DNA from: Pseudorhizobium sp.
GTDB lineage: Bacteria > Pseudomonadota > Alphaproteobacteria > Rhizobiales > Rhizobiaceae
Length of the DNA: 64,000 nucleotides
Direction of reading: 5' to 3'
NCBI GenBank assembly: GCA_046314035.1
Contig: JBKBXP010000001.1
Location: 580-64,579 of the forward strand
Part shown: one piece after another, positions 17,284-39,671 of the stretch
Numbering within the stretch: the stretch's first letter is position 1
Layout: each line of letters starts with the position of its first letter
Translations under genes and position numbers: made by a program
Notes under the pieces: generated by a model
Database searches by the model: none
Seen by the model: the letters and a program-made list of their open reading frames with translations, nothing else
What the model was told of the DNA's origin: nothing

Positions 17284-17320
17284 GCATGTCGCTGAGTTCC
17301 TCGGTATCGGGGACCGACCC

Positions 17321-22160: not shown

Positions 22161-22184
22161 GACTGCCAGTCCTATCGCGGGCAC

Positions 22185-22701: not shown

Positions 22702-22730
22702 GCCTATATATAGGATATCAAAAAATAGGC
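22702..22730 (+). promoter_or_regulatory. Palindromic operator upstream of the XRE gene
   Basis: CCTATATATAGG (22703-22714) and GCCTAT/ATAGGC inverted repeat in an AT-rich stretch. Confidence 0.45.
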
Positions 22731-22760
22731 ATAATTGCTCCATCGTAACTGGAGACGCAT

Positions 22761-23687: not shown

Positions 23688-23986
23688 TCGCCCTTGAAAA
23701 CGACGATGGTGGCATCCGCAGGCGCCGAGAGCCTAGCCTTAGCAGACATGCGCGCCAGCGCATGAAGGATCGATCTATTCCGCTGTCAGTCGTCGAAGCT
23801 CTGCTGGACTTCGGTGAACGGATGTCGGGTGGCACCGGCACTGAGATCTGTTTTTTCACCAAGAAAAGCTGGCGTCGCTTCGCTTCCTATCTCGGCTTGG
23901 AGGCCCGCCATTTCGAGCGTTATCGTAGTGCCTACGTCGTGGTCGCAAAAGATGGCGAGGTGATCACAACCTGCTGGCGTCACTAA
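23684..23986 (+). CDS. Small basic DUF4258-like protein (putative RNase toxin)
   Basis: SRHARQRMKDRSI...LLDFG...VVVAKDGEVITT pattern; ATGA overlap with the XRE gene. Confidence 0.65.
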   Translation: MIALENDDGGIRRRREPSLSRHARQRMKDRSIPLSVVEALLDFGERMSGGTGTEICFFTKKSWRRFASYLGLEARHFERYRSAYVVVAKDGEVITTCWRH

Positions 23987-24082
23987 GTCGACCGAATGGC
24001 AGTTAGATCCGCTGTCGTCGGTTTCCATTGATTGGGGCCAGCCATTTAGTACAAGCTAGAATGCTGGAAAAAGGGGGTAAGT

Positions 24083-25921
24083 TTGTCGTCACATCCGTCT
24101 GCTGCGGCTTGGGTTCGGTTCCTGCGGAACTATGGCCCGATCCCGACCAACGACAATATGTACGACGAATCGATTCAGCGTGCCCTGAAACGCGGCAAGA
24201 TCGCGCCTATCACGCTACCTGCACCGCTAGTGGATCGCCTAGTCGAGAATTTTAGGAGCAGCGCGCCCGTATCGCATATCATCACCGGTACTGCCGGAGA
24301 CGGTAAGACTTATCACTGCCGCGAAGTGTGGACCAAGCTCGGTGGCGACCCAGTCGTCTGGAGCGGCGGCGAGAAGGTACAAACCCTAACGATCGGCTCA
24401 CGATCGCTGGTGATTGTGAAGGACCTGAGCGAACTTCGCGACGATGAGAGTGCAACGCTTATCGCGGCCTTCGCACGTGATGTCGCAGACCCTCAGGCTT
24501 CGACGACCTATCTGTTAGCCGCCAACCACGGGCAGTTGCTCGAGAAGCTCAAATCCGCCCCGCACAGTCCAGAGATCGAGCGTGTGACAGCAGTCGTCGA
24601 GGAACTCCTCGTCACCGGTCTCAATCCGGACACTGCGATCGCTGTCGATCTCGACGACCTCAGCCGTTCACCAGCCGCTGACATGGCAATGCGCATTATC
24701 GACGAAATCACCGCACATGAAGGATGGGATGGTTGCGGCTCCTGCGCCGCCAACTTGGGTGATAACGTCTGCCCGATCTTCGAGAACCGCCGACGGTTGA
24801 TCGGTGAAGGGCCAGACGATCCGTTCAAGGGCCGCGTCACGGCGCTGATCGAGCTGAGCGAGCGCAACGGTAACCACTTCCCGGTGCGCCAATTGCTTGC
24901 ACTTGTCGCCAACAGCATCCTTGGTCATCCCGATGCGCGTGATGGATTGATGAATTGCGCTGAAGTGCCGTCAATCGTCCAGAGTGGTCGCGTTGACCTT
25001 GCGAGCATCTATCGCAACATCTTCGGCGAGAATCTCCGACCGAGCAAAGCTGAAAAGACTGAGCTGTTCCGGAAGCTGAATGCCTTCGGGATCGGCTCGG
25101 AAACCAGCAATCGGGTCGACAATCTCCTCGTCTACGGAGCCGATGATCCCGCTTATGCTGAGGACTACGCGAAGCTTGTCCTTGCAGACCCAATCTATGG
25201 TGCGACCCCGGCTTACATGGTTGCCCAGAAGGCTTACCTCGAAGGTGCCGAGGGTAGTGATCGGACTGGGTTTCTAGCGGCACTTCGATCTCAGCGGCAG
25301 CGGCTCTTCTTCACAATGCCGGAGGCACTTGCCAGCGAGTACGATCTTTGGGACCTGACTGTTTTTCGCTATGCTGGTCTTTATCTCGACGTTGCGGCGA
25401 GGGCCTCCGCGAAACAACCAGTGCCTCGCCAAGCCGTCACAATGGTCGTCCGTGGCCTTAATCGCATTTTCACCGGAATGCTGGCGCAGAACCAGGATGA
25501 GCTCGTTCTCGCAACTTCCGGCAGCTACTCGCAGTCGAAGCGAAGCCCGCTCCTTGATGAGCTGATTTCCGTTCCACGGCAGGGTGGCGAGGAGGTCTCG
25601 ATAGCGCCGGATGGCGTTGGTGGTTTCTGTGTTTCCGTGAAGCTCGTTCGCGGTAGTGAGATTCCGCCGGTCACCCTCTCGCTCTCGCCAACACGCTTCG
25701 AATTTCTCGGGCGCGTCGCGGAAGGCGCTCTCCCGAGCAGTTTCTCGCTCGAATGTCATGAGGATCTCTTGGCGTTTAAAGCGAGATTGCTCCGGGAGAC
25801 TGAAAATCGCCGCAAGCTCGATGGGGACGATGAAATCAACGAGGGCGAGTTGATGCTCCGTTTCATCGACCTTGGCAGCGATGGCCGTGCGGTTGCCCGC
25901 CGCGTAATTGTGCGAGTGTAA
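24083..25921 (+). CDS. sspF: Phosphorothioate-dependent restriction ATPase SspF-like
   Basis: Walker A GTAGDGKT, IVKDLSE, AANHGQL; first of three coupled genes beside sspABCD. Confidence 0.7.
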   Translation: MSSHPSAAAWVRFLRNYGPIPTNDNMYDESIQRALKRGKIAPITLPAPLVDRLVENFRSSAPVSHIITGTAGDGKTYHCREVWTKLGGDPVVWSGGEKVQTLTIGSRSLVIVKDLSELRDDESATLIAAFARDVADPQASTTYLLAANHGQLLEKLKSAPHSPEIERVTAVVEELLVTGLNPDTAIAVDLDDLSRSPAADMAMRIIDEITAHEGWDGCGSCAANLGDNVCPIFENRRRLIGEGPDDPFKGRVTALIELSERNGNHFPVRQLLALVANSILGHPDARDGLMNCAEVPSIVQSGRVDLASIYRNIFGENLRPSKAEKTELFRKLNAFGIGSETSNRVDNLLVYGADDPAYAEDYAKLVLADPIYGATPAYMVAQKAYLEGAEGSDRTGFLAALRSQRQRLFFTMPEALASEYDLWDLTVFRYAGLYLDVAARASAKQPVPRQAVTMVVRGLNRIFTGMLAQNQDELVLATSGSYSQSKRSPLLDELISVPRQGGEEVSIAPDGVGGFCVSVKLVRGSEIPPVTLSLSPTRFEFLGRVAEGALPSSFSLECHEDLLAFKARLLRETENRRKLDGDDEINEGELMLRFIDLGSDGRAVARRVIVRV

Positions 25922-25923
25922 AG

Positions 25924-27465
25924 ATGGAAATTCTGGCCCGCCCTACGAGCTTCGATGATCGCACTGGTCCTGATTTTTGGATTGACGAAGCGATCTGGGG
26001 TCATCGTCTTTACGACGAACAAACACCCTGGCTCACGTTTCTCGAATTCATGACGGTCCTGCTTGCAGAGCACCGTGCGGGGCGCGCGCTTCGCGAGGAA
26101 ACGCTTAACAGCCTCTCCTATCGGCCGCAGCTGCAGTTGCGACTTCGGAACCTGGTCTTCAACAATCCGCACATCATGACTGTCCTTGCCGAGGACCGCG
26201 CAGATGAAGCTGCCTGGACGATTTGGCTCGGCAAGATGGCTGAGACTGCTGGCGGCCTAGACTGCACTGATTTCTCCTATCTGCGCGACAGATTTGAGAG
26301 TTTTCAGGATTTTGCTGCCGTAATCGGCTTTCTTCAGGGGTCAGCTATTGAAGGCTCCAGCAACAAGCGCTGGTCTTCGAAGTTTGTTTTCCCATTTGGG
26401 CCAAACGCTCTCTACGAGGACGCCAACGTCAACCCCCGTGGCGGCGTATCCAACGATCGCCGGTTTTTCGCTCGCACCGGCGAGCTCCTTTATCTGATGC
26501 TCTGTCGGAGCGGTGTGGCGAATGAGCTACGCGGCCTTGTGGTGTCCCGGTTCCTCGAGAACCCGGCTCCATATGACAGTATGGCCCGGGCGCTCCAAAA
26601 CGATCCTCAATTCTCGAAGGCAGAGCGTGCAGGTGCATACCTGCCGTGCTCATCCCATCCGGTCTTCGACCGACTCGCGGAAGACTGGCTCGCAATCCTT
26701 GGCTCGCCGATCCCTGCTTATGATGCCATCCCTCACTTGGTCGCGATGACCGGCCTTAACCTCACGCTGTATCAACTCGAGCGCGCGCGCGAGGTTCTCG
26801 ATGGCGACCCGGTCCAGCTCGTCTGCGAGATCGTTTCGCCCCGTAAGTCGGTGGTTCGCGATCTTTCCGCTGACTCCTATCAGCGAAACAATAGTCTTCC
26901 CCAGCAAGCGGTTGAGCGCTTTGTCCGGCAGGTCACCGAAACCGAAGAATGGCACTCGGCCGTCGTGTCGGAGGACCCAATTCTGAACGCTGCGGATATA
27001 CTCAAGCATACCTTTGGGTGGCCTGACACAGATGATGAGGAAATAGCGCCTGATCCAACCGCGTTGATCGACCAGCTGGCCGACCGCGCCATAAGCCGCC
27101 ACAAGCAGCATATCGGCAAGATCCATATGACATGGTCACGGGCCATCGGGCTCTCGTCGCGGCGGTCCAGCCGTCGTGTGCGCTATGCACCGACCGACAG
27201 GCTCCTGAAGACGCTCGTAGTATGCTGCGTGGCCAAACGTCTTGAGTTTCGAGATTTCCTTGCGCTTCTTCATGAGCGCTATGGCCTGGTCATCGGAGAC
27301 GCCCAAGCTCGCAGCTTCATAGCCAGCGGCGATGCCGACCAGGAAGATTTCTCCGATAATGCTAGGCGACTAGAAGAGCGGCTTGCAAGCCTCGGCTTGC
27401 TCAAGCGTCTCTCAGATTCCTGCGCCTATGTCGAAAACCCCTTCGAACGAGCCCAAGCCGCGTGA
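25924..27465 (+). CDS. sspG: SspG-like restriction subunit
   Basis: C-terminal winged-helix-like LASLGLLKRLSDSCAYVENPF resembles DndG/DptG ends; assigned partly by position. Confidence 0.65.
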   Translation: MEILARPTSFDDRTGPDFWIDEAIWGHRLYDEQTPWLTFLEFMTVLLAEHRAGRALREETLNSLSYRPQLQLRLRNLVFNNPHIMTVLAEDRADEAAWTIWLGKMAETAGGLDCTDFSYLRDRFESFQDFAAVIGFLQGSAIEGSSNKRWSSKFVFPFGPNALYEDANVNPRGGVSNDRRFFARTGELLYLMLCRSGVANELRGLVVSRFLENPAPYDSMARALQNDPQFSKAERAGAYLPCSSHPVFDRLAEDWLAILGSPIPAYDAIPHLVAMTGLNLTLYQLERAREVLDGDPVQLVCEIVSPRKSVVRDLSADSYQRNNSLPQQAVERFVRQVTETEEWHSAVVSEDPILNAADILKHTFGWPDTDDEEIAPDPTALIDQLADRAISRHKQHIGKIHMTWSRAIGLSSRRSSRRVRYAPTDRLLKTLVVCCVAKRLEFRDFLALLHERYGLVIGDAQARSFIASGDADQEDFSDNARRLEERLASLGLLKRLSDSCAYVENPFERAQAA

Positions 27466-30400
27466 CCCCTTCAAACCTCATCGGTGCAGCCGGCGCCGCT
27501 TCGATTCGCCAACGCCTCTCTTCAATCTCAGAGGCTGACGGAGTAGCTAGGTATCTGCTTGATCGCCTTACCGGTGAGCAAGTTGCTGCGATCACAAGAG
27601 CGCTTCTCGAGGACTCCAGCACGCAAGCCCTTCTCAAGATCGCGCTGCCGCGGAATTTGGTCGGTGATTTTGGACTGCCGGACCACGTCGTCACCGACGA
27701 GCGAACGGTCGCAGTCCGTCACGCAGAGTGTGATCGTCCCGCCTTGTTACTTGCGAATACAGACGACGACCAGGGAGCTTCACTAGGCGATGTAACGCTT
27801 ATTGGCGCTAAGCAGCTTACCGAAGACGCTGATCCATGGGTCGAGGCCGCCGCAGCAGGATTGGGGCTTCCCGACAGTCAGATCGGGGCATGGAAGGCGG
27901 CGCTCAAGGGTTTGAACAACGCCGACGATTGGACGCTTCACCAAATCTCGAACTATGTCGCTCTAACTCGTGAGCGGATCGCTGCGGAGTCGACCACTGT
28001 TCCGGATGCACTAGGTTGGGCGCTTCCCGCACTCCATCTCCCCCGTGACAGCGGCTATTTCCTGAGCATTAGGGAGCTGGAGCAGTCTCGTCGCTGGAAG
28101 CGGCAGTTCGAAAAGCTAGTCTCTGACCGGAAGCCGTTGCTCGCCAAGCAGCGTCCGAACAGGCAGATCATCGAGGGCGAGGAGCTGCGGTCACAATTCG
28201 AAGCGGTGAAAGAAGATATTCCAGTCACGGTCCATCCCGCAATCGAAGCTTTCATTACAGCCACGCCAGGATGGAACGAGGCAGCCAACGCTCTGTCCCA
28301 GTTTGAATGGGAGGGCCAGAGCGTCCTGCAGCTTTTTTCGGGCATCAAGCTCAAGAAGACAACGCTGCCGCAAGAAACGCTGACCTATTTCGAGTTCACG
28401 TTCCCCGATCGGCTCAGCCCGGCGGACATCGATTATCTCGAAGCGCTAAAGGCGCGGTCGCTCAAAGAGACGCGAGACGAGGACCGCGAGTTTTTCGAAG
28501 CTCACCGAGATGATATCGGCCAAGACAAGGCGCTTCGCGTCAAATGGGAGCGTTTCATCTTCGGACGTCCCATCGAATGCCATGACTTTCTCGAGGGACT
28601 GCTGCGGGCGTTGGAACGCCTGTTCGGGCAGGTAAACCTAGCCGGCGGTAATCGCTCGCTGACGATTCGCTCAGCACGTAGAAACCGTTCGCAATGGCTC
28701 GATATCAACGCCGACGTCGGGCTCGCCTTTGGCCTTCGTTACAGGGGGCTGCGCGAACTAATGGGGCCCACCATTACTTGGGATACGCCTCATATATTCG
28801 AGTATGAAGAAGTCCTGGACCGGGCTAAGAAGCGGAAAAAGTATCGGCGGAATGAATCGACCTCCCGCGCTGCTCTGCAGATCAAGTTCGACATTGTGCT
28901 GGAGTCGGGCTCGGAGCGTGCGACCGTCCAGCTCATCTGGATCGCGCAGCCCAACGCCGTCGGTCTCGAACTACCGAAGGACCTTGGCCGACTGTTGAAG
29001 CGACCACTGACGCGAAGCAGCGTCGCACGCTTGCCAGTCAACCGGAAGGGCGCACTTCAGTCGGTGTCGCTCACCGACGTTGGGACGCTGCAGCCCGCCT
29101 TCGGGCAAGATGCGGGCAGCTTGGTGCCAAGGACCACCGCGGGTGAAGATCTCGCCAAGACCTTTGCCAGAGCACTGAAGGTCGCGGGGCAGAGCGGCCG
29201 CATCGATCCGCATGGGCTTACGGCGGTTGAAGCGGCTTGGTCAATCTTCAGGGCGGAGTATATCGAGGCACTGAGCGCTCTTCAATCATCGGGCTATGCA
29301 TCGCCTTTCCTGCTTTCTCAAGCAGAGGCTTATGGCGCGCTCCTACGCGCACTGTCGCTACATGCGCCAGGCGATCTCAATCGCCGCGACCTTTGGGAGC
29401 CCGTCCTTAGCATCGGTGTGATCCCGGTTACGGGAAGTGCTCCTTCGGCGATTGTCGCTCCATGGCACCCTCTTCGCCTCGCGGCGGGCGCGATCAAGAT
29501 GCGCGCGGTTGCAGGGCTCGCAGACTACCTACTCTCCGACGTAGACGTGAACTTTGGCGACTCACGCCTGTTCTTTTCCGACCTGCGCGATGAGCTGGCC
29601 CATCCGCTCTATCCGGAAATCGCAGTCGGCTATGACGGGAGCGAAGCCGTTCTTCTCACCGAGACGGGCACGGTGAACGATTACAGCTTGTTGGAACGCC
29701 CGGTCCGCGACCCGTCCGAAGCGACGACTGACGTCGATCCCGCAGAGGCTGCTCGCCAGATCCGCAGCCTGTTGGAGCGCTATCTGGACCTTCAGCCGCA
29801 TGAGCGCTCGAATCTCAGCATCATGCTCTTCAACTGCGATGCCGCCGGTTTGCCTTTAGCCACGGTAAATGTCCTGAGCTCGGTGCAGGACCAGGAAGAG
29901 GTTCATTGCAACGTGCTCGTCCGCCATCGGGATCGTTCGCGTCTCTCCCATGTCTATGGTGAGCTGCTCGATCGCTCCGAAGGTGATTCGGACGCCATCG
30001 TTGTGAGCGAGACCTCTCGCAATTTCATGTCGAAGCTGCGCATTGGAGTGATGCTTGACAGCGGTGCCGCCCGGCCCAGCGATGCGGCCCGAGAAATCGA
30101 CATCGCGTTCCTTCATGATGTGGTGTCTCGACAGGCGCGCGAACAATGGTTCCCGGTGCCTGCCGCAGCCGCGAACCCTTCGCTTCTCGAGCATGTCCCG
30201 GCTCGTTGGTCCTACCGGCGCGTCACGGCCGAAGATGAGCTTAAGGCCACGGTCTACTTGACCTGTCCGCGCCAGCCTGATGCTGGTTGGGCCTATGTTG
30301 ATGCGGTTGCGAACGTCATCCGCCGGCAAGCGCATGGGGCCAAAGAGCACTATCTGCCGGCACGGCAGATATCCTTCCAGGATTCCGGCCTGAAGGCCAT

Positions 30401-32873
30401 GTTCGACGAGGTCCACGATCTCGCAGAGTGGGTCGCAACCTATGATGACCTGTTAGACAAACGGCAGCTTGCTGCGCAGGGTATCAATGTAATTCGCTAT
30501 CGCCGACAGCGGACGCACGGCCGCAATATGGTGGTCTCGTCGACATCTGAACTGCGGATTCTAAATGTCCTTGTTCGCCGCCGATTGTCGGAACTCTCAC
30601 TCGGGCTCGATGATGAGCGCTTATCGAAGCTCGCCAAACGTCTAATCGACGATGCCAATGCCATTTCCGGCGATATCGTTCTTCGCGCCGCGAAGCGGGG
30701 GGGTTCTGCCGGGGAACTGATCGGTCTCGTCCTTAGCAGGGCACTGGTGGCAGAGGAGCTCGGTGATCATGCTGCCGTCGCGTGGTTCCTGCTCGACGAC
30801 TATGCGGGATGGCTCGGACAACGCGAGGAGGGCATCGCAGACATCCTTGCGCTCTGTTTGGTTGAGGGTGAAGGTGGAGCACCACATTTGCGTGCGATCG
30901 TCACCGAGGCAAAATATGTCGATCAAAGTGGGTCTGCCGAAGCGAGCCGAAAGTCTCGCCAGCAGCTACGGCAGACTGTGGCGCGCATCGACGATGCACT
31001 GTTTGGCGATCCAGGACGTCTCGATCGGGACCTCTGGCTTTCGCGGATTGCGGACCTCCTGCTCGACGGCACGGCGGCACTTGGGCAGACGAGTCTGCTC
31101 GAGCAGGTCCGCGACGGTATTCGGCGCGGCGAAGTTCCAATCGATCTGCGCGGCTACTCGCACATCTTCATCTCCGGCCCAGCGACTGATGGGTCCTCAA
31201 TCGGCGAGCAGAATGTGGTTCCCGATGTAAACGGGGGGCTACAGGAGACTTTCACCCGTGAGGGGCTCCGGCAGTTGCTCAAAGCCTATGAAGCAGGACA
31301 GCCATTGAAGGCACTGCGCGCTAGCTTGGGAGGAAATGATAGTTGGGACCACCCTGAATATCGTGACCCTGCACCGCGCGTTGATTGGACAAAGGGACTT
31401 ACCGTCAAGCCAAAGTCTACGGTCTCGGCCAAGCTGATCCAGCATGACTATGACAACGAAGACGATGATGAGGAGGAGGCGTCGGCGACTGTCCCCAAAT
31501 CATCCGAGCCATCCGTAACCGCTGAACCTGCCGTGCCACTAGTGACTGAGGAACCTCCTCTTGCGGCATCTGAGCCGTCCGCACCGTTCCAATCGGTCCC
31601 TGGGCTGGAGCCAGCTACAATCTCAGCGATAACGGCGCAGGCTCCAGAGGACACGATCATCAAGCCCGCAGCGCCAACGCCTGCGCTCGGATCAAAGGCC
31701 ATTGATGCCTTAATTGCGGCCCACGCGCAGAAGGCACACGAGGACTCTGCGGAAGAACGGGCCTGGCTCGATACTACTGCTCAGAAGCTCCGGTCGGCGT
31801 TAATGGGCTATAATCTGCAGGCCAAGGTTCTCGGAACGAGACTCACGCCAAACGCGGCGCTGATCCGCTTTATGGGGAGCGACCGTCTACGCGTTGAAGA
31901 TATCGAGGCTAAGCAGTCGGCTTTGCTTACTACCCACGGGCTTCGTCTGATTTCGGTGTCGCCGCTTCCGGGCGAGATCGTCGTTGGTGTCGCTCGGCCC
32001 CAGCGTCAGGTAGTTTCGCTCTGGGATGTTTGGGGTCGCCGTGAAGTGAACCGCAATGCGGCTGGCGTGAACACATCCTTCGTCCTCGGCCTAAAGGAGC
32101 TCGACGGGGACATCCTCTACCTCAATCTGGGCGGGGCATTCGCCGGCGGACAATCGCACGAGCCGCACACGCTCGTTGCGGGCGCAACAGGCTCGGGCAA
32201 ATCTGTTCTCATCCAGGCTCTGTTGCTCGACATCGCCGCTACCAATTCAAGCGCGCTGGCCCATATCTACTTGATCGATCCGAAGATGGGGGTCGACTAT
32301 GTAGCGATCGAACGGCTTCCGCATCTGCAGGGCGGGGTCATTGTCGATCAGACCCGCGCTGTTGAGGTGATGGAGGCGCTCGTTGGTGAAATGGAGCGAC
32401 GCTATGAGTTGTTCCGGGCCAACGGTGCTCGAGACATTCGCGCTTACAACACGAAGGTCACTGCCGGGGAGCGGTTGCCCTATGTGTTCCTTGTCCATGA
32501 TGAGTTTGCCGAGTGGATGCTCACCGAGGACTACAAGGCTGCGGTTACCGCGAATGTGTCGCGCCTAGGTGTGAAGGCGCGCGCAGCCGGCATGCATCTC
32601 ATCTTTGCTGCGCAGAGGCCAGACGCGAACGTCATGCCGATGCAGTTGCGCGATAACCTCGGCAACCGGCTTATTCTCAAGGTAGCAAGTGTGGGAACGT
32701 CGGAAATCGCCCTTGGCGTAAAAGGTGCTGAGCAATTGCTAGGTCTCGGCCATCTGGCGGCACGGCTGAGTGGTGAACCTGCGATCATCTATGCTCAGGC
32801 ACCATTTCTGTCCGATGACGACATTGATGATGTCGTGGATGCGATTAGAGCTAGCGACGCTGTGAAGACCTAG
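27462..32873 (+). CDS. sspH: SspH-like large protein with C-terminal FtsK/SpoIIIE ATPase
   Basis: 1803 aa; HTLVAGATGSGKS, LIDPK, VHDEFAE, ARAAGMHLIFAAQRP. Confidence 0.75.
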   Translation: MTPSNLIGAAGAASIRQRLSSISEADGVARYLLDRLTGEQVAAITRALLEDSSTQALLKIALPRNLVGDFGLPDHVVTDERTVAVRHAECDRPALLLANTDDDQGASLGDVTLIGAKQLTEDADPWVEAAAAGLGLPDSQIGAWKAALKGLNNADDWTLHQISNYVALTRERIAAESTTVPDALGWALPALHLPRDSGYFLSIRELEQSRRWKRQFEKLVSDRKPLLAKQRPNRQIIEGEELRSQFEAVKEDIPVTVHPAIEAFITATPGWNEAANALSQFEWEGQSVLQLFSGIKLKKTTLPQETLTYFEFTFPDRLSPADIDYLEALKARSLKETRDEDREFFEAHRDDIGQDKALRVKWERFIFGRPIECHDFLEGLLRALERLFGQVNLAGGNRSLTIRSARRNRSQWLDINADVGLAFGLRYRGLRELMGPTITWDTPHIFEYEEVLDRAKKRKKYRRNESTSRAALQIKFDIVLESGSERATVQLIWIAQPNAVGLELPKDLGRLLKRPLTRSSVARLPVNRKGALQSVSLTDVGTLQPAFGQDAGSLVPRTTAGEDLAKTFARALKVAGQSGRIDPHGLTAVEAAWSIFRAEYIEALSALQSSGYASPFLLSQAEAYGALLRALSLHAPGDLNRRDLWEPVLSIGVIPVTGSAPSAIVAPWHPLRLAAGAIKMRAVAGLADYLLSDVDVNFGDSRLFFSDLRDELAHPLYPEIAVGYDGSEAVLLTETGTVNDYSLLERPVRDPSEATTDVDPAEAARQIRSLLERYLDLQPHERSNLSIMLFNCDAAGLPLATVNVLSSVQDQEEVHCNVLVRHRDRSRLSHVYGELLDRSEGDSDAIVVSETSRNFMSKLRIGVMLDSGAARPSDAAREIDIAFLHDVVSRQAREQWFPVPAAAANPSLLEHVPARWSYRRVTAEDELKATVYLTCPRQPDAGWAYVDAVANVIRRQAHGAKEHYLPARQISFQDSGLKAMFDEVHDLAEWVATYDDLLDKRQLAAQGINVIRYRRQRTHGRNMVVSSTSELRILNVLVRRRLSELSLGLDDERLSKLAKRLIDDANAISGDIVLRAAKRGGSAGELIGLVLSRALVAEELGDHAAVAWFLLDDYAGWLGQREEGIADILALCLVEGEGGAPHLRAIVTEAKYVDQSGSAEASRKSRQQLRQTVARIDDALFGDPGRLDRDLWLSRIADLLLDGTAALGQTSLLEQVRDGIRRGEVPIDLRGYSHIFISGPATDGSSIGEQNVVPDVNGGLQETFTREGLRQLLKAYEAGQPLKALRASLGGNDSWDHPEYRDPAPRVDWTKGLTVKPKSTVSAKLIQHDYDNEDDDEEEASATVPKSSEPSVTAEPAVPLVTEEPPLAASEPSAPFQSVPGLEPATISAITAQAPEDTIIKPAAPTPALGSKAIDALIAAHAQKAHEDSAEERAWLDTTAQKLRSALMGYNLQAKVLGTRLTPNAALIRFMGSDRLRVEDIEAKQSALLTTHGLRLISVSPLPGEIVVGVARPQRQVVSLWDVWGRREVNRNAAGVNTSFVLGLKELDGDILYLNLGGAFAGGQSHEPHTLVAGATGSGKSVLIQALLLDIAATNSSALAHIYLIDPKMGVDYVAIERLPHLQGGVIVDQTRAVEVMEALVGEMERRYELFRANGARDIRAYNTKVTAGERLPYVFLVHDEFAEWMLTEDYKAAVTANVSRLGVKARAAGMHLIFAAQRPDANVMPMQLRDNLGNRLILKVASVGTSEIALGVKGAEQLLGLGHLAARLSGEPAIIYAQAPFLSDDDIDDVVDAIRASDAVKT

Positions 32874-32916
32874 TTTGGCATAAAAGCTTGAGACCGTGAG
32901 GTCGAGCACTCGCCGT

Positions 32917-33756
32917 CTACTTATGGCAGATGACGCAGCTGCTCGATCCTTCGTCGATACCGTAGGCGTCATCGATTGTCTCTGCCGTGTTGGCAGAGAG
33001 CGGGTTCACCCGACGGTTGCGGAACAGCCGCTCGCGCCGCTTCTGATAGTCGAGTTTGATCTGATCTACCCGCGCTGGCTCGATGAGCTCCGTAAGGCTT
33101 TCACCCTGGCTCCAAGTAAACGGCGAACCGTCACGAAGTGCGGTCTTTTCGTAGTCTACAGCTTCGGCAAAGCGGTCTGGATGCTCCTCGAAAAGGCGAA
33201 CCCATTCGATCTTCTGCTGGAAGAAGCAGAACGTGCAGCCCGACCGTGATCGCCACTTATAATATTCGGGCTCGCCGACGTCCGATTGGTCGAGGATCTC
33301 GATCACACCAAGTCGATCGATGCCTGCATCCCTCAGCGGGAGATGAACCCGCATGTTTGGGTGTGTAGCTTGATACCCCTCGCGGCTCGGTTCGTCCGCA
33401 CGGATCGCAACGTAGGAGTGGACGATAGTGCCACTGTCTAAGTCGTCTCGGAGCCAATGCTCCAAAGGGCGTAGCTTGAGCTGGCGGGTGCACCAGCGCG
33501 TGCGCGGTGATGGGAGAAAGTTCCCATACTCCTCGAGCCAAAAATCGAAGTCGCGATCGGGATTCAGCCTCTCAATCGGGCGGCCAAGAAAGCCCTCCAA
33601 CTTGTCGAGGAACTTGTAAACCTCGGGAAGCTCTTTGCCCGTGTCAGTGAAGAAATATTCGATCGGTAACTCGGGTCGATATTGACGCATGTAAACAGCC
33701 AGCGCGGCACTGTCCCGACCGCCCGACAGTCCCAGGATATGGCGCTCTTTGCTCAC
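32917..33756 (-). CDS. sspD: SspD (DndC-like PAPS-reductase-family Fe-S protein)
   Basis: PP-loop SGGRDS, FTDTG, WCTRQLK, RSGCTFC and terminal CVICHK. Confidence 0.85.
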   Translation of the reverse strand: MSKERHILGLSGGRDSAALAVYMRQYRPELPIEYFFTDTGKELPEVYKFLDKLEGFLGRPIERLNPDRDFDFWLEEYGNFLPSPRTRWCTRQLKLRPLEHWLRDDLDSGTIVHSYVAIRADEPSREGYQATHPNMRVHLPLRDAGIDRLGVIEILDQSDVGEPEYYKWRSRSGCTFCFFQQKIEWVRLFEEHPDRFAEAVDYEKTALRDGSPFTWSQGESLTELIEPARVDQIKLDYQKRRERLFRNRRVNPLSANTAETIDDAYGIDEGSSSCVICHK

Positions 33757-36700
33757 GCGATTTCCACTTCGTCATCTGTCTCCGCCGCGAGCATCGCGAC
33801 CGCTCGTGCAAGCGCTGCAAGGCGAAGTCGTCCCGATATTTCGTCAGCCCGAAGGTCAGCAACGACCCGGTCCGCCAAGCTCGCAGCAGCGTTCTTCTCC
33901 TTGTCGTTCAGAACGAAGCTGCGCAGCAGTGGTGGAGCTTTAGGATCCAATCCAACGACCAAAGCGAGGGCTTCGGTATGCGACTGGCGGTCGCGGACGA
34001 CCGCGAGCGCCTCTAGCTCCCTGAAGCGGCGCCCGAAGCGGGCGATCTCGGTCAGGGCCTCCTCGCGATCGCGATCGGACCAGTTTCTAGCTGGTCGGTG
34101 CAGAAGGACGCTAACCAGGCTTTCAATATCACCAGTTCCTTGCTCGATCGCAGCCGCACGGTCCGCGAACGCATCGAATGCGTAGTCGTTCGTGAGGCCT
34201 TTCACCGATGCGACCCTGTCAGAAATGCCACTGAAGGATTCCGCCTCGACACCGAGTGCTCGTGCGAGCGCCTGACGTAGTTCCACGAGCAGGCTGGGAT
34301 AAGCCGCCTCGCACGCCAACAATCCCTCGAATACAAGGTCGGGCGTCAATCTCTCTCCGAACGCATCTGGAAGAGCATCGAACAGCAGCGCCTCAGGATC
34401 CTCCGCCTTCGCCACGACGCCGCGCACCTTGCATGCGTCATCATCCAGTCTTTGCGTCCGCTTTGCAAAAGACGACAGGGCTTCGAATCGTTGGAACAGG
34501 GCCGCCGCGACGGGCAATGAGCCTTCGCTGGCCTCCGTAGCTAAACGTTCCGCCAACCCACTCAGGAACGCCGTCTCGCGGATTGATCGATCAATTCGAC
34601 GCAGGCGGAAACCGCCGGGTTTTTGAAGAAGTTTGTCGACAACGACGTCGTTGATCGCCGTCTGATAAACGCCGTCGATGTAGACCGCGACGCTGTCTCG
34701 GCGGGCCAGCATATAAGCCAGAGCCAATACCGGCATGACACCTGCCTTGAGTCCGAAAGGCGGGAGGGCCCATCGCTTGAATACCGCGTTGAGCCCTTCC
34801 ATACCAAGCTCGTCGAGCACGTTCCAAGCTGGTTGTAGCGATTGTCCTTCATCACTGTCATCGGGCTCACCAAAGGCGAACGCGCCTGAAGGCAACCGAT
34901 GGTGCAAGCCGAAGGGCTTCAGTGTCGTCAGATAGAGTCCAAGCTCTGCCGGATAGCCCGTGATCCCCAAATTTTCCTCTGCAAATCGCGTCACCATCGC
35001 GTGAGCTAGGTCGCGCAACGCGGCCATCGCGTTCGAAGATGGCTTGTCGCGCTGCAGCAGTTCGCTCTTTAGGATCGGAGCCGATGGATAGCCTGCGTCG
35101 GCAAGCGCGCTCGCAACCACTGCCAATGGTCCCCGCAGGCCTTTGTTGGGGGAGGGGGCCAGAAACCAACGCGCGGTCTCGAGGGATGCCTCAAGCGTCT
35201 GATGAAGCTGATCGATGCATAGCGACTGACGAGCGGCGATCTCTCGGCGCGCAATACGGTCGCCCTCGAGCTGTGGATGGTCTCGAATGACCCGCTCAAC
35301 TGCGAGGAGTTCTGCTGCGATTGAACGAAACGCAAAGCTGTCGGCGGCAGCACCGATTGCGACAACTCTGCCCTCGTCCTTTAGTTTCTTGGCGGTCGCT
35401 TTCGCGAGTGCATCGACATCCGAAGGTTGAAGGGATCCGTCCGAGAGCGTCAGTAAGAGCAGCCCACTGCCACGCTTTGGTCGGTTGAGAAGGGACATGG
35501 CTAGTTCGTCGGCAGCGTCATCAGTACCGACGATATGAAGCGCAATTTCAAAGGTACGAAGGGCGCCAGTCAGAAAGTAGTGTCGCTTCGCTGTCGCGAA
35601 GCCAAAGCCAACCCGTTGAGGTAGTTCTTCGAGCTGCTGATTCCCGACGGGGGTGATCGCGCGCCCGATGGCGTCTTCGAGATCGAAGTCGCTGCCGGCA
35701 AACAGTGCATAACCCCCAAGGCGCGGCTGGCGGATAAGCACCGCCCAATCGAGCAAGTCTTTGATCGCCGAGGACCGGATTTCTGCGGAAACGGTCGGCA
35801 GAGCGAACGCAAGTATGTCGTCTGCTAGCGCCAGACCCGATCCGTTCCGAAAGAATTCAATGACTGCGGCGGCTTTGGTCAACGCGACGTGCTCTGGACC
35901 GCCTTTCGCACCAGCCCGTTCAATAGCCTCAAAGGCCAGGCTGAACCGACTGCCTTCCGGTCCAGTTGCGAGGGCCATGCCAAAATTGGCTGAGAGATAG
36001 TCCCACAACATTGACGGGTCGTAAGTGCCGTCACCGATCTTGGTCGCTGAGAGGAATTGCTGGAAACCTGCTGGCTCGGCCGAGCTCAGAAAGCCAAAGA
36101 CGCTCCGCTCGTTCTGGGCGAAACGCGCGCGGGACACCGGGCCGAGCAGCAACGCCGTCACCGGGTTCAGCGGCCATGTCTCCGCAAGAGCCTGAGTGAG
36201 CGCCGGAACCTCGGTAGGCCGCCTTTTCGCAATCGCTTCTGCAACCTTGGCCGCCTCGGTGTGCGCCGACGAGGGCGGTTCACTCGCGATCGCGCGCCCG
36301 AGGAGGGCCACTGTCTCGTCCGCTCCGCTGAGGAAGGCGATATCTTGATAGCGGCCTTGAACCTTGGCCCATTCTTGGCGGGCATCGCGTGCCGCCCGAG
36401 CTGCATATTGCTCGAATGATTGGTGAAGGATGCCAATAACGACAAGCTGGCCATCGCTGCGGGAAGCCCGCTCTGCGATATCCTGTAGAAGGTGAACGTC
36501 TCCGCCCTCGAGCGCTTCATGCTCCAGCATCTTGCCGAGCTCATCGAGGATGACAAGCGTGCCGCCTGCCGTTTTCCCTGCGGGCACCAATGCCCCGATC
36601 AATGCCTCATCACTGGCACCGTATCTCTCGCGAGCGGGCTGATCCCAGCCGAAAGCACTGGCCGCAGCATCGGCTATTGCGTCGCGCAAGCGAACTCGTC

Positions 36701-37058
36701 CGCCGGTCACGGCAACGACGTGCCACTCGCCAACGCTTTCGGGAAAGGCTTTGGCGTAAAGCTCGGTCAGTGCCGGGCCTGCTAATTGCCTTGCTATCTT
36801 GCGGTTTGCGCGGCCGCCCGCCACCAAGTTAGCCAAAAGCAGGGCAGCGCTCGACTTGCCACCGCCATACGGCCCGGTCCAGGTAAAGGCACCTTGCTGG
36901 CTTTCGATCTGGCTCTCGGCAAGCAGCGTCAACGCCTTGGCGACTGTCGCTTGCAGAACATAGCCGACGAGAGGGGGGGTGCCGTTGAGATCGGCATCCA
37001 AACGCGCAGACCTCGCGAACCTTCGATCGATCGCAACCTTAGAGGAGAGGAGCGTCAT
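33753..37058 (-). CDS. sspC: SspC ATPase
   Basis: Walker A GPYGGGKS, Walker B ILDELGK, FAQNERSVFGFL; ATG 37058 overlaps the sspB stop. Confidence 0.82.
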   Translation of the reverse strand: MTLLSSKVAIDRRFARSARLDADLNGTPPLVGYVLQATVAKALTLLAESQIESQQGAFTWTGPYGGGKSSAALLLANLVAGGRANRKIARQLAGPALTELYAKAFPESVGEWHVVAVTGGRVRLRDAIADAAASAFGWDQPARERYGASDEALIGALVPAGKTAGGTLVILDELGKMLEHEALEGGDVHLLQDIAERASRSDGQLVVIGILHQSFEQYAARAARDARQEWAKVQGRYQDIAFLSGADETVALLGRAIASEPPSSAHTEAAKVAEAIAKRRPTEVPALTQALAETWPLNPVTALLLGPVSRARFAQNERSVFGFLSSAEPAGFQQFLSATKIGDGTYDPSMLWDYLSANFGMALATGPEGSRFSLAFEAIERAGAKGGPEHVALTKAAAVIEFFRNGSGLALADDILAFALPTVSAEIRSSAIKDLLDWAVLIRQPRLGGYALFAGSDFDLEDAIGRAITPVGNQQLEELPQRVGFGFATAKRHYFLTGALRTFEIALHIVGTDDAADELAMSLLNRPKRGSGLLLLTLSDGSLQPSDVDALAKATAKKLKDEGRVVAIGAAADSFAFRSIAAELLAVERVIRDHPQLEGDRIARREIAARQSLCIDQLHQTLEASLETARWFLAPSPNKGLRGPLAVVASALADAGYPSAPILKSELLQRDKPSSNAMAALRDLAHAMVTRFAEENLGITGYPAELGLYLTTLKPFGLHHRLPSGAFAFGEPDDSDEGQSLQPAWNVLDELGMEGLNAVFKRWALPPFGLKAGVMPVLALAYMLARRDSVAVYIDGVYQTAINDVVVDKLLQKPGGFRLRRIDRSIRETAFLSGLAERLATEASEGSLPVAAALFQRFEALSSFAKRTQRLDDDACKVRGVVAKAEDPEALLFDALPDAFGERLTPDLVFEGLLACEAAYPSLLVELRQALARALGVEAESFSGISDRVASVKGLTNDYAFDAFADRAAAIEQGTGDIESLVSVLLHRPARNWSDRDREEALTEIARFGRRFRELEALAVVRDRQSHTEALALVVGLDPKAPPLLRSFVLNDKEKNAAASLADRVVADLRADEISGRLRLAALARAVAMLAAETDDEVEIA

Positions 37059-37978
37059 GCTGCGCTTCTCCACGATCCGCTCCTTGGAAAGGCGGAAGGG
37101 ATAAGTTCTGTCACATCGATATCTTGCTTTCGCTGGATCTGACGCAGTCCGGCAGTATCGACCCACTGCCATGCGCCGTCTGTCACGTCATCGATCCGCA
37201 TGAGGCGTGTAATGACACTGTCTTCGTCAAGTTTGAACACGCGACCTGGGGAGCCTGCGGAATAGCAGACTTGTTCGGCAGTCATAGTCGTAGCGCCGCC
37301 GCTTCGCTCCCAGAAACTGCCAAGCGCGTAAGCGAACACAGCGTCGTGCAGCGTCGGCTTGGGGCCGCGCACGAACTCGTACCATCCACCCACGCGAGCT
37401 TCGCGGATGAGGGCGAGTTCGGCCAACAGTGGCTCCGCTGCATCCTCGCTGAAAGTCTCACCTTTGCGGACGTAGCTTCGCAGGAAAACTTCGATGTCAC
37501 GCTTCAGTGTGCCGCGCGTAGCCCGCCATCCTCGGGCGCTGACCACGCCGAAGAGCTCGTCGAGCAATGTAGTCGGGTTAAACTCGATCGCGTTTAGCAC
37601 GTTGAAAGCGTAGAAAGTTGTCGTGGCTTTCGTCTGGGAGCTGGCGATGTGCCAGTGGACGAGCCAGATCGTTGCTGCCTGCTCCAAGTATGGATCGAGG
37701 CCGTCATCGGCGAGAATAGCGTGACCTAGGGCTGTGGGCCGGATAACCCGGTCTACTTCTTCAAAAAAGCCCGATGCAGTAGCCCAGTACCGCATCGAAA
37801 CGGCCATATTGCGTCCCACGCCAAACCGAGTGATGGCCTCCTGTTCCTGGAATGTTCCAATGGGGGCCTCGGCTCCCACGGCATCATAGGCTTTTTTCAG
37901 CCATAGGAGGCGCAGGGGGAATGTCTCGTGCCCCGCGAACTGTACCTTCGAATCAAGTTTTAAACCATTCCTCGCCAT
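37055..37978 (-). CDS. sspB: SspB (DUF4007) nickase
   Basis: FAGHETFPLR..WLKK, FGVGRNMA.SMRYW and DPYLE DUF4007 signatures. Confidence 0.88.
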   Translation of the reverse strand: MARNGLKLDSKVQFAGHETFPLRLLWLKKAYDAVGAEAPIGTFQEQEAITRFGVGRNMAVSMRYWATASGFFEEVDRVIRPTALGHAILADDGLDPYLEQAATIWLVHWHIASSQTKATTTFYAFNVLNAIEFNPTTLLDELFGVVSARGWRATRGTLKRDIEVFLRSYVRKGETFSEDAAEPLLAELALIREARVGGWYEFVRGPKPTLHDAVFAYALGSFWERSGGATTMTAEQVCYSAGSPGRVFKLDEDSVITRLMRIDDVTDGAWQWVDTAGLRQIQRKQDIDVTELIPSAFPRSGSWRSAA

Positions 37979-37987
37979 AAGGCGACG

Positions 37988-39178
37988 CTACTGGCGAACC
38001 TCTCCAGTAGCAAGCAGTGAACGGTGTATAGCGTCGGAAATCACGTCGATCGCTTTATCGATTTCTGCAGCAGCAGTGTAGCGGTTGCAAAAGATCCGAA
38101 CAACAGAGCGCGCCTCGGTCGCAGAAAATCCAATCGCTTCAAGAACATGCGATGTTCTAATTTGGCCGGCGGTGCAGGCGGAACCTGTAGACAGCGAAAC
38201 GTGACGTGCGATCATTGAGCATAGCGCGTCCCCGTCGACGCCGGGGAAAGACACCGCAACACCGCCAGGCACCGTGGGAGCGTGTCTGTTGACTGTCGAA
38301 AGGCGAACCTGCCGGTCGCGGAGACCGTTCAGTAGCTTGGAAATCAGTGCAGACCCATGATTTTGGTCTTCAATCAGACGAGACCGTGCGACTGAAGCGG
38401 CGGCTCCAAAGCCCGCAATGAGTGCGACCGGTTCGGTTCCCGGGCGTGCCCCCGCCTGCTGCCCGCCGCCGAACATTAGCGGTACCGGCTTCGTTGCTCC
38501 CGCTGACACATAAAGCGCGCCGATCCCCATCGGCCCATAACATTTGTGCCCAGACAGGCTAAGGTAATCCACGTCGAGATCGAGCACGTCGACTGCAATC
38601 TTACCTACACCTTGGGCTGCATCACAGTGAAACAGCGCTCCGTAGGCGTGCGCAAGTTCGGCCGCCTCTCCGACGGGCTGCACAATCCCAGTTTCATTGT
38701 TCACGAGCATAACTGACGCAAGCAGGACGTCATCCCCCAGCAAATGTCCGAACGCCTCAAGATCAAGAGTTCCGCTTCGATCGACAGGTGCGAACTCCAC
38801 GATAAAACCATGCTTCTTCAGTTGCTCTGCAGGTTCGATCACCGCCTTGTGCTCGATTGCTGAAAGCACGATCCGCCTACGATATGGCTGATGGCCTGCG
38901 ACAGCGTTCACGACGCCCACAATCGCCAGATTGTTTGCCTCGGTCGCACCGGATGTGAAGATGATTTCGCTCGGCGCAGCACCGATCAACTCGGCTACCT
39001 CGGCTCGCCCCTCTGCTATAATGGCGGCAGCCCGCTCACCCGACTGATTTGGGGATCCAGCATTGCCTGGGATATCCCAGACCGCGAGCATTGCGGCCCT
39101 CGCTTCAGGGGCGAGGGGGAGCGAGGCAAACCCATCTAGGTAGATTGATGGGGAATGGTCGGCGTTTCTCATGTTCAT
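37988..39178 (-). CDS. sspA: Cysteine desulfurase SspA (IscS-like)
   Basis: FTSGATEANN, NNETG, HCDAAQ, PLP lysine SGHKCYGP, catalytic STGSAC. Confidence 0.92.
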   Translation of the reverse strand: MNMRNADHSPSIYLDGFASLPLAPEARAAMLAVWDIPGNAGSPNQSGERAAAIIAEGRAEVAELIGAAPSEIIFTSGATEANNLAIVGVVNAVAGHQPYRRRIVLSAIEHKAVIEPAEQLKKHGFIVEFAPVDRSGTLDLEAFGHLLGDDVLLASVMLVNNETGIVQPVGEAAELAHAYGALFHCDAAQGVGKIAVDVLDLDVDYLSLSGHKCYGPMGIGALYVSAGATKPVPLMFGGGQQAGARPGTEPVALIAGFGAAASVARSRLIEDQNHGSALISKLLNGLRDRQVRLSTVNRHAPTVPGGVAVSFPGVDGDALCSMIARHVSLSTGSACTAGQIRTSHVLEAIGFSATEARSVVRIFCNRYTAAAEIDKAIDVISDAIHRSLLATGEVRQ

Positions 39179-39187
39179 GAGTTGTTC
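39173..39187 (-). promoter_or_regulatory. LexA box over the sspA start
   Basis: GTTC-ATGAGTT-GTTC on the plus strand, overlapping the ATG at 39178. Confidence 0.65.
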
Positions 39188-39430
39188 TTAGTTCCGCTTG
39201 CGTAGAGTCGGAACCCCAAAATGAGTGGCGCAAAGTCGACGGGTCGTGCGAAGACTACCCCATGAAGAGACTAGTGGCCAGAGCCAGCGCTTGACTCCGC
39301 GTGTGCTCGATGCCGAACTGCCCGTTCTCGAAAAGGAGAGGGCGCTCAGCTTTTCCGGGAACCCACGGGCGTCTGTCGAATTCTCCTAGCCCTGCGCGAG
39401 TGTTTCCCCTATGTTCTAGGGAGGACCGAG

Positions 39431-39661
39431 ATGAGTGCCATTATGACGAATTTCGACGTTGATACCTCCGAGGCGCACGGATCCCGCAAGTGGGAAGGCC
39501 TCTCTGAGCTTGATCAGGCAATTCGCGACAATCGCCTAATGGAGTACAGGCTCAAGAAGTCGTGGGCCGATCCTTGGGGGCGCAAGCTGACGATAATCGG
39601 CCTTATCGTCATTGGCGCAGTTTTCGCGTTTCTGGCTGGAGCATCCTTCGGCCTGTGGTGA
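39431..39661 (+). CDS. Small membrane protein convergent with traG (entry-exclusion candidate)
   Basis: 76 aa with C-terminal TM helix and GGAGG SD; preceded by GTTT-N7-GTTC (39402-39416). Confidence 0.6.
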   Translation: MSAIMTNFDVDTSEAHGSRKWEGLSELDQAIRDNRLMEYRLKKSWADPWGRKLTIIGLIVIGAVFAFLAGASFGLW

Positions 39662-39671
39662 CCGTTGCAGG

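Follow-up and report, generated by a model that had tools for sequence, protein, structure and literature searches.

Organization of the ssp locus

The DNA analyzed here, a stretch of 64,000 nucleotides referred to as the window, belongs to an F-type conjugative element or plasmid of a Rhizobiales-like host and carries the ssp genes behind traG. The modification genes are located on the reverse strand and comprise sspA (37988..39178), encoding a cysteine desulfurase of 396 aa (Pfam Aminotran_5; PADLOC SspA, E = 2e-113), sspB (37055..37978; DUF4007 by Pfam, also identified by PADLOC), sspC (33753..37058; an ATPase, PADLOC SspC) and sspD (32917..33756; PAPS-reductase-like, Pfam and PADLOC). The initial annotation had described these four genes as tightly packed, in agreement with a gap of 9 nt between sspA and sspB and overlaps of 4 nt each for sspB/sspC, where the sspC start overlaps the sspB stop, and for sspC/sspD. 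The restriction genes sspF (24083-25921), sspG (25924-27465) and sspH (27462-32873) occupy 24083..32873 of the forward strand, as identified by PADLOC, and are convergent with sspD; no SOS box lies upstream of them. SspH contains a Pfam FtsK_SpoIIIE domain (FtsK-like ATPase). The PADLOC E-values ranged from 1e-103 to 0 for SspA/B/C/D and from 1e-218 to 0 for SspF/G/H. With SspA-D encoded in one operon and an adjoining SspF/G/H module, the locus has the gene content of the SspABCD-SspFGH systems.

PADLOC assigned the same seven gene families as are found in the SspABCD-SspFGH system of Vibrio anguillarum FF-93 (PMC8092258), whereas the setting, a conjugative element in a Rhizobiales-like host, is different. 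SspA starts with 'MN', followed by residues 3-10 that are hypervariable among homologues, and the convergent arrangement of sspD and sspH occurred in all five loci of this 'MN' clade that had enough context. Regulation of ssp genes is described neither in PMC8092258 nor elsewhere in the literature searched.

A predicted SOS box at the start of sspA

An SOS box had initially been annotated on the sspA start codon, and the 15-mer in question is indeed present at 39173..39187, spanning positions -9..+6 relative to the sspA ATG on the reverse strand (gene strand GAACAACTCATGAAC; forward strand GTTCATGAGTTGTTC). On the forward strand it reads GTTC-ATGAGTT-GTTC, an exact direct repeat GTTC-N7-GTTC, which is the form published for the Caulobacter SOS box (PMC9578287) and the same direct repeat as in the alphaproteobacterial LexA regulon of Caulobacter, Rhizobium/Sinorhizobium and Rhodobacter. 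The host itself, whose RecA is 88-91% identical to that of Rhizobium, Mesorhizobium and Nitratireductor, has exact boxes upstream of recA, uvrA/ssb, comM, dinB, a radical-SAM repair gene and uvrD. Scored with a matrix trained solely on six host sites beside recognized SOS genes, the sspA box reached 18.2 bits (0.04 expected per window); a 12-site matrix gave 21.5 bits and rank 12 among all genomic 15-mers. With 18-21.5 bits and 0.005-0.04 expected per window, it is on par with the boxes of host recA, uvrA/ssb, dinB and comM. The box shares with the same four host sites a T-rich spacer and a T before the second GTTC, and its location near the start codon resembles that of the host dinB and radical-SAM gene boxes. 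The bare 8-base core is frequent, with 111 copies in the genome or 1.9 per 64 kb. The window contains 7 copies (1.7 expected), a number reached in none of 100 shuffles, and a chance origin of the sspA box is unlikely. Searching the metagenome-assembled genome (81.6% complete) with the LexA_DNA_bind profile yielded no match, only HTH-S24 proteins; an S24 match on contig C99 was considered as canonical LexA and rejected, as it represents an HTH-S24 regulator truncated where the contig ends.

The box forms the end of a 5' region of sspA that is conserved over 45 bp. Within this alignment (A2), invariant columns also form an upstream block, TTTTGGGGTTCCG (39209..39221, reverse strand; -43..-31 of sspA), which may represent a promoter element. 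A scan of 39100-39750 found no sigma-70 consensus promoter or terminator. Hand-read -35/-10 candidates (TTCCGA-17-TAAGAA; a yAnnTT -10 at about -45) were too weak to claim, and by inspection the conserved blocks fitted neither an ECF/EcfG-type GGAAC-N16-CGTT nor a sigma-54 reading. The upstream block was also rejected as a third LexA half-site, as it has no partner at N7. A weak box with one mismatch, GTTTCCCCTATGTTC (39402..39416, forward strand; 11.7 bits), lies just 5' of the Shine-Dalgarno sequence of a divergent ORF; it is kept only in the closest relatives (at least 89% identity), so that its conservation is not informative. The ORF itself (39431-39661) encodes a small membrane protein.

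Conservation of boxes upstream of sspA

The exact sequence GAAC-AAnnnAT-GAAC was found at the sspA start in ten independent lineages of the clade with a 396-aa 'MN' SspA (65-99% identity), with the exact core at -9..+6 in L109, L110, L197, L189/L201, L190, L191, L192, L193/L202, L194, L195 and L020. An eleventh lineage, an Azospirillum relative (L019), has GAGC and thereby one core mismatch. Among the lineages with this box, the spacer centre (-3..-1), codons 3-10 and the upstream neighbours were all divergent, and the invariant positions, i.e., GAAC, the next AA and ATGAAC, coincide with those that are informative in the host matrix. Absence from close homologues, which the initial annotation had named as an argument against LexA control, was not observed, as every examined homologue of at least 75% identity has the box. 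In L020, sspA starts 10 nt after the upstream gene, which places the box in a gene array and not at an obvious promoter.

Other ssp lineages have independent strong boxes further upstream of sspA, at -63 (L204, 21.0 bits), -79 (L097/L099, 19.5 bits) and -167 (L111, 24.2 bits), with at most 0.02 expected; most lineages outside the 'MN' clade have no box upstream of sspA. Across 27 ssp loci (207.5 kb), 23 sites scored at least 16.5 bits while 0.5-2.3 were expected. Nineteen of them occurred in the ssp positions and two at imuA and SRAP genes, the latter serving as a positive control, and within these loci high-scoring boxes are specific to ssp. Among 401 genomes of the host's order sampled for SspA, there was only one distant match (49% identity).

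A second box within sspB

A second exact GTTC-N7-GTTC repeat occurs 1330 bp downstream of the first, at 37843..37857 on the reverse strand (gene strand GAACATTCCAGGAAC), and falls within codons 41-46 of sspB (GGA ACA TTC CAG GAA CAG). The initial annotation was correct in reporting a box at sspA; it had overlooked that this is one of two conserved boxes and that the one in sspB is the more widespread. The score of the sspB box was 14.1 bits in the window, with values of up to 21.6 bits among relatives, and about 26 of 29 alphaproteobacterial sspB genes preserve the box through synonymous sites. The codons used at the box were GGA in 14 of 16 cases for Gly, AGA in 9 of 9 for Arg, ACA in 21 of 22 for Thr and GAA in 25 of 26 for Glu, compared to a gene-wide usage of 18% (GGA), 5.5% (AGA), 18.5% (ACA) and 47.5% (GAA). 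Residue 41 of SspB alternates between Gly and Arg, yet nGA is kept, and the codon for residue 46 begins with C whether it encodes Gln, His or Arg. The wobble sites within the spacer vary freely. In SspB from outside the Alphaproteobacteria (Methylibium, Tenderia), the amino-acid motif underlying the box is not conserved. As judged from this codon pattern, the sspB box is under selection at the nucleotide level. Synonymous-site entropy revealed no conserved promoter within about 90 nt on each side of it, and we know of no established repressive mechanism for a LexA operator 120 nt inside a coding region.

SOS boxes on the element and their absence from the restriction genes

Equally good boxes are present on the element at the traD/traI, traA and repressor promoters, and the box at 20294 of the window is identical to the host uvrA/ssb box. 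An HTH-S24 repressor of the element with an S24 (LexA/CI-type) peptidase domain is encoded at 21519-22184, and its start is preceded by a box at a distance of 43 bp. Here, sspABCD forms part of an SOS set that extends over the whole element. The box initially assigned to the modification operon is present, but on this element such boxes are not special to ssp.

The sspFGH side is different. It had been noted before that no box precedes sspF, and in the matrix scan no site from 22300 to 37800 exceeded 9 bits; likewise, no SOS box was found near sspF in the relatives L199 and L200. The nearest co-directional box to sspF is located at 22227, with a terminator-like hairpin downstream of it (22546-22560). 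Between this hairpin and sspF lies a unit on the forward strand (22761..23986) consisting of an XRE-family HTH gene (22761-23687) and a coupled gene for a 100-aa product (23684-23986), which ends 96 bp before sspF. The unit has its own promoter-like site at 22670-22699 and no box above 9 bits in front, and possibly provides separate control of the restriction genes. Its XRE product is, at 308 aa, not small, its matches to PADLOC Control_protein are weak (E = 3e-5), and the gene does not recur in front of sspF in L199. The earlier proposal, in which the modification operon but not the restriction operon has a LexA-type operator, hence receives strong comparative support, as the box is kept in homologues and sspF is free of boxes.

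Alternative explanations for the repeats

The first half-site of the sspA box lies over a Shine-Dalgarno-like AGGA and the second consists of the ATG and the Asn codon, so that its conservation could partly serve translation. The motif might even be a mere by-product of translation without any role of LexA, with TAGGAACAA representing the Shine-Dalgarno sequence and an A-rich spacer, and ATGAAC the start and a favoured second codon. AGGA is found at -11..-8 in most lineages, at normal spacing from the ATG, the start codon supplies one G of the core, and other ssp clades with an ordinary GGGAAG/GGAG Shine-Dalgarno sequence have no box. However, position -10, which is relevant to the AGGA, varies between G and A while GAAC is constant, and neither the AC-AA after the Shine-Dalgarno sequence nor an invariant Asn codon before a hypervariable tail is needed for initiation. 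The explanation also accounts neither for the box held at synonymous sites in sspB nor for the more distant boxes of other lineages (-63, -79 and -167), and agreement with the host SOS matrix would have to be accidental, with a chance of about 1e-7 per position. We therefore regard translation as an unlikely sole cause of the motif.

Similarly improbable is that the repeats are read by a protein other than LexA, e.g., the HTH-S24 repressor of the element, an alphaproteobacterial factor not known so far, or the Ssp machinery itself, for which they might be a loading or self-marking site. The box in front of the S24 repressor gene would fit such a reading, and the intragenic position of the sspB box is odd for a classical operator. 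In contrast, boxes accompany the ssp cassette in loci without this S24 repressor, where the neighbours are an integrase, AbiEi, SRAP/imuAB or a GATase-like ORF; they are indistinguishable from the chromosomal recA, uvrA and dinB boxes, and the Ssp target CCA is absent from many copies of the sspB box. A masking of the ribosome-binding site at the RNA level by pairing of GGUUCC (-37..-32) with GGAAC (-10..-6) in the 5' leader can practically be dismissed. The two arms show near invariance in alignment A2 and are complementary over 4-5 bases, but a hairpin between the two conserved blocks has a consensus folding energy of -0.25 kcal/mol, four pairs only, no covariation with zero compensatory changes, and uncompensated mismatches in the window, L195 and L192, and would explain neither the second half-site nor the sspB box.

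Discussion

Both GAAC-N7-GAAC repeats are best read as predicted operators for a host LexA of the alphaproteobacterial type. We consider it likely that host LexA represses sspABCD and that SOS induction raises phosphorothioate (PT) modification, with SspFGH being outside LexA control. As boxes are preserved on sspABCD across many relatives and none on the restriction genes, the modification and, thus, self-protecting half of the system is probably upregulated upon DNA damage. LexA binding, repression, inducibility, the position of the transcription start and any feedback or establishment logic are what we infer from these patterns. Our literature search found no paper linking LexA to the expression of Ssp or Dnd.

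According to this model, LexA would occupy the sspA box in undamaged cells and keep sspABCD at a basal level. The box would be located at or just downstream of a short promoter region that belongs to the operon and travels with the cassette, and the sspB box may add another block or serve as an additional anchor. RecA would be activated by ssDNA, which could stem from an incoming conjugative strand, from genotoxic stress or from SspFGH nicking self DNA that is under-modified. In its activated form, RecA would then promote LexA self-cleavage, SspABCD levels would rise and more 5'-CCA-3' would be phosphorothioated. As sspFGH has no box and would be read from its own XRE-headed unit, the SOS signal should shift the balance to protection.

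Entry of conjugative ssDNA induces SOS (Baharoglu 2010, as cited in PMC9578287), and SspFGH damages host DNA lacking PT and causes filamentation (PMC8092258). LexA control of sspABCD could provide a burst of modification upon conjugative entry, or a boost under stress. A more speculative and rather doubtful extension is that alphaproteobacterial Ssp systems form an autoimmunity homeostat, in which SspFGH would nick under-modified self DNA, SOS would free the two operators and PT would rise until no further damage occurs; upon entry of the element into a naive cell as ssDNA, this circuit would likewise produce a modification burst.

SOS-controlled functions of mobile elements include the integron integrase intI with its LexA box, SetR of SXT/R391 and the colicin operons. 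The predicted ssp operators would likewise borrow the stress repressor of the host, and the element has further boxes at transfer and repressor promoters. Induction of integrons by the entry of conjugative ssDNA is documented in PMC9578287. Unlike in these cases, control would be exerted on the modification half of a defence system that resembles restriction-modification, and the predicted operator moves with the ssp cassette into unrelated contexts. Also in comparison with the LexA regulon, the unit under proposed regulation is a phosphorothioation operon of a mobile element and not a gene for repair, mutagenesis or cell division, and a second box is kept intragenically at synonymous sites. 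The timing of restriction-modification systems can be controlled by C-proteins, and DndB represses dndBCDE. The problem to be solved is the same, i.e., modification has to precede restriction and the dosage of modification genes has to be limited, and an XRE-type HTH gene with weak PADLOC Control_protein matches heads the sspFGH side as well. However, the cassette has no dedicated regulator of the modification genes; the proposed use of host LexA would couple them to DNA damage and not to the accumulation of a regulator.

The intragenic box in sspB is a new observation and represents a clean natural case of a predicted transcription-factor site kept within a coding sequence by means of rare codons. 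The findings address the question of how PT systems set their well-known partial modification level and avoid self-restriction in a new host. If true, a conserved input of host LexA on the modification genes only would be a simple answer, in which DNA damage raises protection, and the SOS regulon would gain the epigenetic writer of a defence system. Genotoxic antibiotics would then be predicted to alter PT levels and the restriction of phages and plasmids in these bacteria.

An F-type conjugative element carries the ssp genes

The window covers part of an F-type conjugative element, with traD (14683-17283), the relaxase gene traI (17219-20248), traG/H/F/N/trbC genes (minus strand, from 39672 upward) and the pilin gene traA (57422-57766). 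Its transfer genes share only 65-68% DNA identity with those of Sphingomonadales F-type plasmids; the host metagenome-assembled genome (MAG) has a GC content of 63% and a RecA 88-91% identical to that of Rhizobium, Mesorhizobium and Nitratireductor. The defence insert sits behind traG, and all seven ssp genes were named by PADLOC with E-values of 1e-103 or better: sspA (37988-39178), sspB (37055-37978), sspC (33753-37058) and sspD (32917-33756) on the minus strand, and sspF, sspG and sspH (24083-32873) on the plus strand, convergent with sspD. The tight packing of sspABCD reported in the initial annotation is reflected in a 9-nt gap between sspA and sspB and two 4-nt overlaps within the operon. 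The same cassette also occurs downstream of traG in a second, different F-type element (TraF, TraH, TraG_N; L201:345-5473), where AbiEi, AAA, Fic and integrase genes are inserted between traG and ssp. Such elements may have a defence-cargo hotspot behind traG.

An SOS-type box at the sspA start codon

The GTTC-N7-GTTC repeat that had been proposed to overlap the sspA start codon (box 1) was located at 39173-39187 (GTTCATGAGTTGTTC; gene strand GAACAACTCATGAAC), spanning positions -9 to +6 of the ATG. By itself, the eight-base core carries little weight, occurring 111 times genome-wide (1.9 per 64 kb); in the window, it was found seven times against 1.7 expected, with a T before the second GTTC in every copy. 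Exact boxes on the host chromosome lie upstream of recA and between uvrA and ssb, and others precede comM, dinB, a radical-SAM repair gene and uvrD. GTTCN7GTTC has been published as the SOS box of Caulobacter (PMC9578287). On a weight matrix built from six chromosomal host boxes at recognised SOS genes, box 1 scored 18.2 bits (0.04 sites expected per window, 2.3 per genome), and on a 12-site matrix 21.5 bits, ranking 12th of all genomic 15-mers within a top-scoring cluster clearly apart from the others. No lexA gene was found in the host MAG, which is 81.6% complete, and 'host LexA' is therefore deduced from its regulon; the missing canonical gene is probably due to the incomplete assembly. 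The only other S24-peptidase gene of the MAG (contig C99:1-513, L005) encodes an HTH-S24 regulator and is truncated where the contig stops.

SspA homologues separate into clades, and that of the window, with 396 residues, is characterized by a Met-Asn start ('MN'), a hypervariable tail of about eight residues and a conserved PIYLDG core. A comparison of sspA upstream regions revealed the exact GAAC-AAnnnAT-GAAC at -9 to +6 (16.5-22 bits) in all eleven further 'MN' members for which DNA was fetched (65-99% identity; L109, L110, L197, L189/L201, L190, L191, L192, L193/L202, L194, L195 and Novosphingobium album, L020). In Azospirillum rugosum (L019, 68% identity) the first half-site is GAGC. Invariant columns in the alignment of the sspA 5' regions form two blocks, TA(G/A)GAACAA...ATGAAC and TTTnGGGTTCCG at -43 to -31, while positions -3 to -1 and codons 3-10 are hypervariable. 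Farther upstream the loci carry unrelated DNA (traG and a small ORF, integrase, AbiEi, SRAP/imuAB; in one case a GATase-like ORF 10 nt from sspA), indicating that the cassette brings along a 5' region of about 45 bp that ends 3' in box 1. An origin purely as translation signals, an unlikely reading, would account for part of box 1. The conserved positions are the informative positions of the host matrix, namely the two cores and the adjoining AA/TT, and position -10, which would be the most important for a Shine-Dalgarno (SD) AGGA, is either G or A. Pairing of the two blocks into an RNA hairpin was unsupported (-0.25 kcal/mol, no compensatory change). Residues 3-10 of the 'MN' proteins (SspA of the window, P0002-P0014 and P0041) retain reading frame and length despite their hypervariable sequence, and this tail resembles a linker that joins the PIYLDG core to a start codon whose position is fixed within the box.

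A second box within sspB

A further exact repeat, absent from the initial annotation, lies at 37843-37857 within codons 41-46 of sspB (GGA ACA TTC CAG GAA CAG, G-T-F-Q-E-Q). Of 29 alphaproteobacterial sspB genes, about 26 retain this box 2, and do so at synonymous sites; they come from both 'MN' and non-'MN' clades and include those of Asticcacaulis and Sphingopyxis. Where residue 41 is Gly, GGA is kept in 14 of 16 genes (usage in these genes, 18%), and where it is Arg, AGA in 9/9 (5.5%), so that nGA is always retained upon the Gly/Arg swap; ACA is kept for Thr 42 in 21/22 (18.5%) and GAA for Glu 45 in 25/26 (47.5%). Residue 46 is Gln, His or Arg, its codon being C-initial every time, and the two spacer codons show normal variation at their wobble positions (TTC/TTT, CAG/CAA/CAC). 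Only the core codons of box 2 have a reduced synonymous entropy, of 0.2-0.5 bits compared to 0.9-2.1 bits for the same amino acids elsewhere. No promoter-like footprint was seen around box 2. Its conservation cannot be a translation-start effect, and a translation signal accounts for none of it. Box 2 is the strongest sign of selection on the GAAC repeat itself in the ssp operon.

Boxes in other ssp lineages and on the element

Outside the 'MN' clade, most sspA genes from Rhizobiales and Sphingomonadales lack a box in the 400 bp preceding them. Three independent lineages have strong ones: at -79 (19.5 bits), in the divergent region between sspA and a DUF262 (SspE-like) gene, in Sphingobium xenophagum p1 and Sphingomonas bisphenolicum pBAR3; at -167 (24.2 bits) in a Gluconobacter-like contig (L111); and at -63 (21.0 bits) in Pleomorphomonas pSM30-2. 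About 0.002-0.02 sites this strong were expected (17 lineages x 300 bp each), and translation signals leave these upstream boxes unexplained. A matrix scan of 207.5 kb from 27 alphaproteobacterial ssp loci yielded 23 sites of at least 16.5 bits against 0.5-2.3 expected: eight at the sspA ATG, eight in sspB, three upstream of sspA, two elsewhere, and two in locus L194, one before an imuA-like gene and the other between two SRAP genes, which act as a positive control as these are classic SOS genes. In L201, the 10 kb preceding sspA, with its tra, AbiE, Fic and integrase genes, was free of matrix sites. In two metagenomic relatives (L194:1-2500, L196:1-900) the cassette adjoins an imuA-like/imuB (IMS + DUF6504) mutagenesis cassette, and in L194 also the two SRAP (YedK-like) genes, each of which has its own strong SOS box (20.1 and 19.6 bits). 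Reading of the boxes by another DNA-binding protein, e.g., the element's HTH-S24 repressor, is unlikely, as the cassette retains them in contexts without this repressor gene and they are indistinguishable from chromosomal SOS boxes.

Within the element, the box at 14479-14493 encloses a perfect TTGACA -35 motif, 17 nt before TAGCTT, in the promoter of an RHH gene (14565-14897) followed by traD and traI. That at 20294-20308 has the same sequence as the host uvrA/ssb box and is found 11 bp upstream of a 79-aa ORF (20319-20558). The box at 22227-22241, at the repressor switch, is flanked by the HTH-S24 repressor gene (21519-22184) on one side and a cro-like ORF (22261-22491) on the other. Two or three boxes in tandem (57806-57820 and 58029-58054, the latter with 58029/58040) lie between traA and a 153-aa gene (58117-58578). 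Since the same boxes occupy these control regions, sspABCD here belongs, as one unit, to an SOS set that spans the element; in the other loci, the boxes travel with the ssp cassette alone. On the plus strand, a small 76-aa ORF (39431-39661) is oriented convergently to traG and divergently to sspA. Its product has a hydrophobic helix at the C-terminus, and its strong SD (GGGAGGA) is immediately preceded by a one-mismatch box (39402-39416); L201 also has a small ORF in the equivalent place after traG.

The restriction genes

The absence of a box in front of sspF, noted earlier, held in the matrix scan, as no site above 9 bits occurred between 22300 and 37800. The nearest co-directional box is that of the repressor switch at 22227, which is followed by a terminator-like hairpin (22546-22560). 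An acidic 308-aa XRE-family HTH gene, ATGA-coupled to the gene of a basic 100-aa protein (22761-23986, plus strand), ends 96 bp before sspF, and the three genes have their own promoter-like site at 22670-22699. The pair, which N. album does not conserve upstream of sspF, could represent a toxin-antitoxin system or control the restriction genes locally. No site of at least 11 bits was found within 1.5 kb of sspF in N. album and A. rugosum, and sspH is convergent in 5/5 'MN' loci with enough context. SspF is conserved far better than SspA between the window and these two relatives (91% and 82% versus 76% and 68%; L199, L200), which suggests differing evolutionary rates of, or module exchange between, the two halves.

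Regulatory implications

The best-supported reading, inferred from these patterns, is that host LexA would bind both boxes, repress sspABCD and release it upon RecA-stimulated self-cleavage, with box 1 perhaps at the promoter or downstream of it and box 2 as a candidate roadblock or second anchoring site. Two published findings could explain why LexA control would be confined to the modification genes. Host DNA lacking phosphorothioate (PT) is damaged by SspFGH, resulting in filamentation (PMC8092258); under-modification would therefore raise the SOS signal and, via LexA, the modification genes, forming a negative feedback loop. SOS is also described as induced when single-stranded DNA enters by conjugation (Baharoglu 2010, as cited in PMC9578287), so that, as initially proposed, entry could trigger a burst of modification in a naive recipient.

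Mobile elements are well known to place functions under SOS control. Full-text searches combining phosphorothioate or Ssp with LexA returned no paper in which Ssp or Dnd expression is tied to LexA; in the literature found, SOS figures only as a consequence of unrestrained DndFGH/SspFGH or as a phage target. Intragenic LexA sites are already known from ChIP-seq in other phyla. On the sequence comparisons presented here, sspABCD would join the regulon as a new member, with an operator placed, unusually, in a coding sequence and with a regulatory logic that is appealing.
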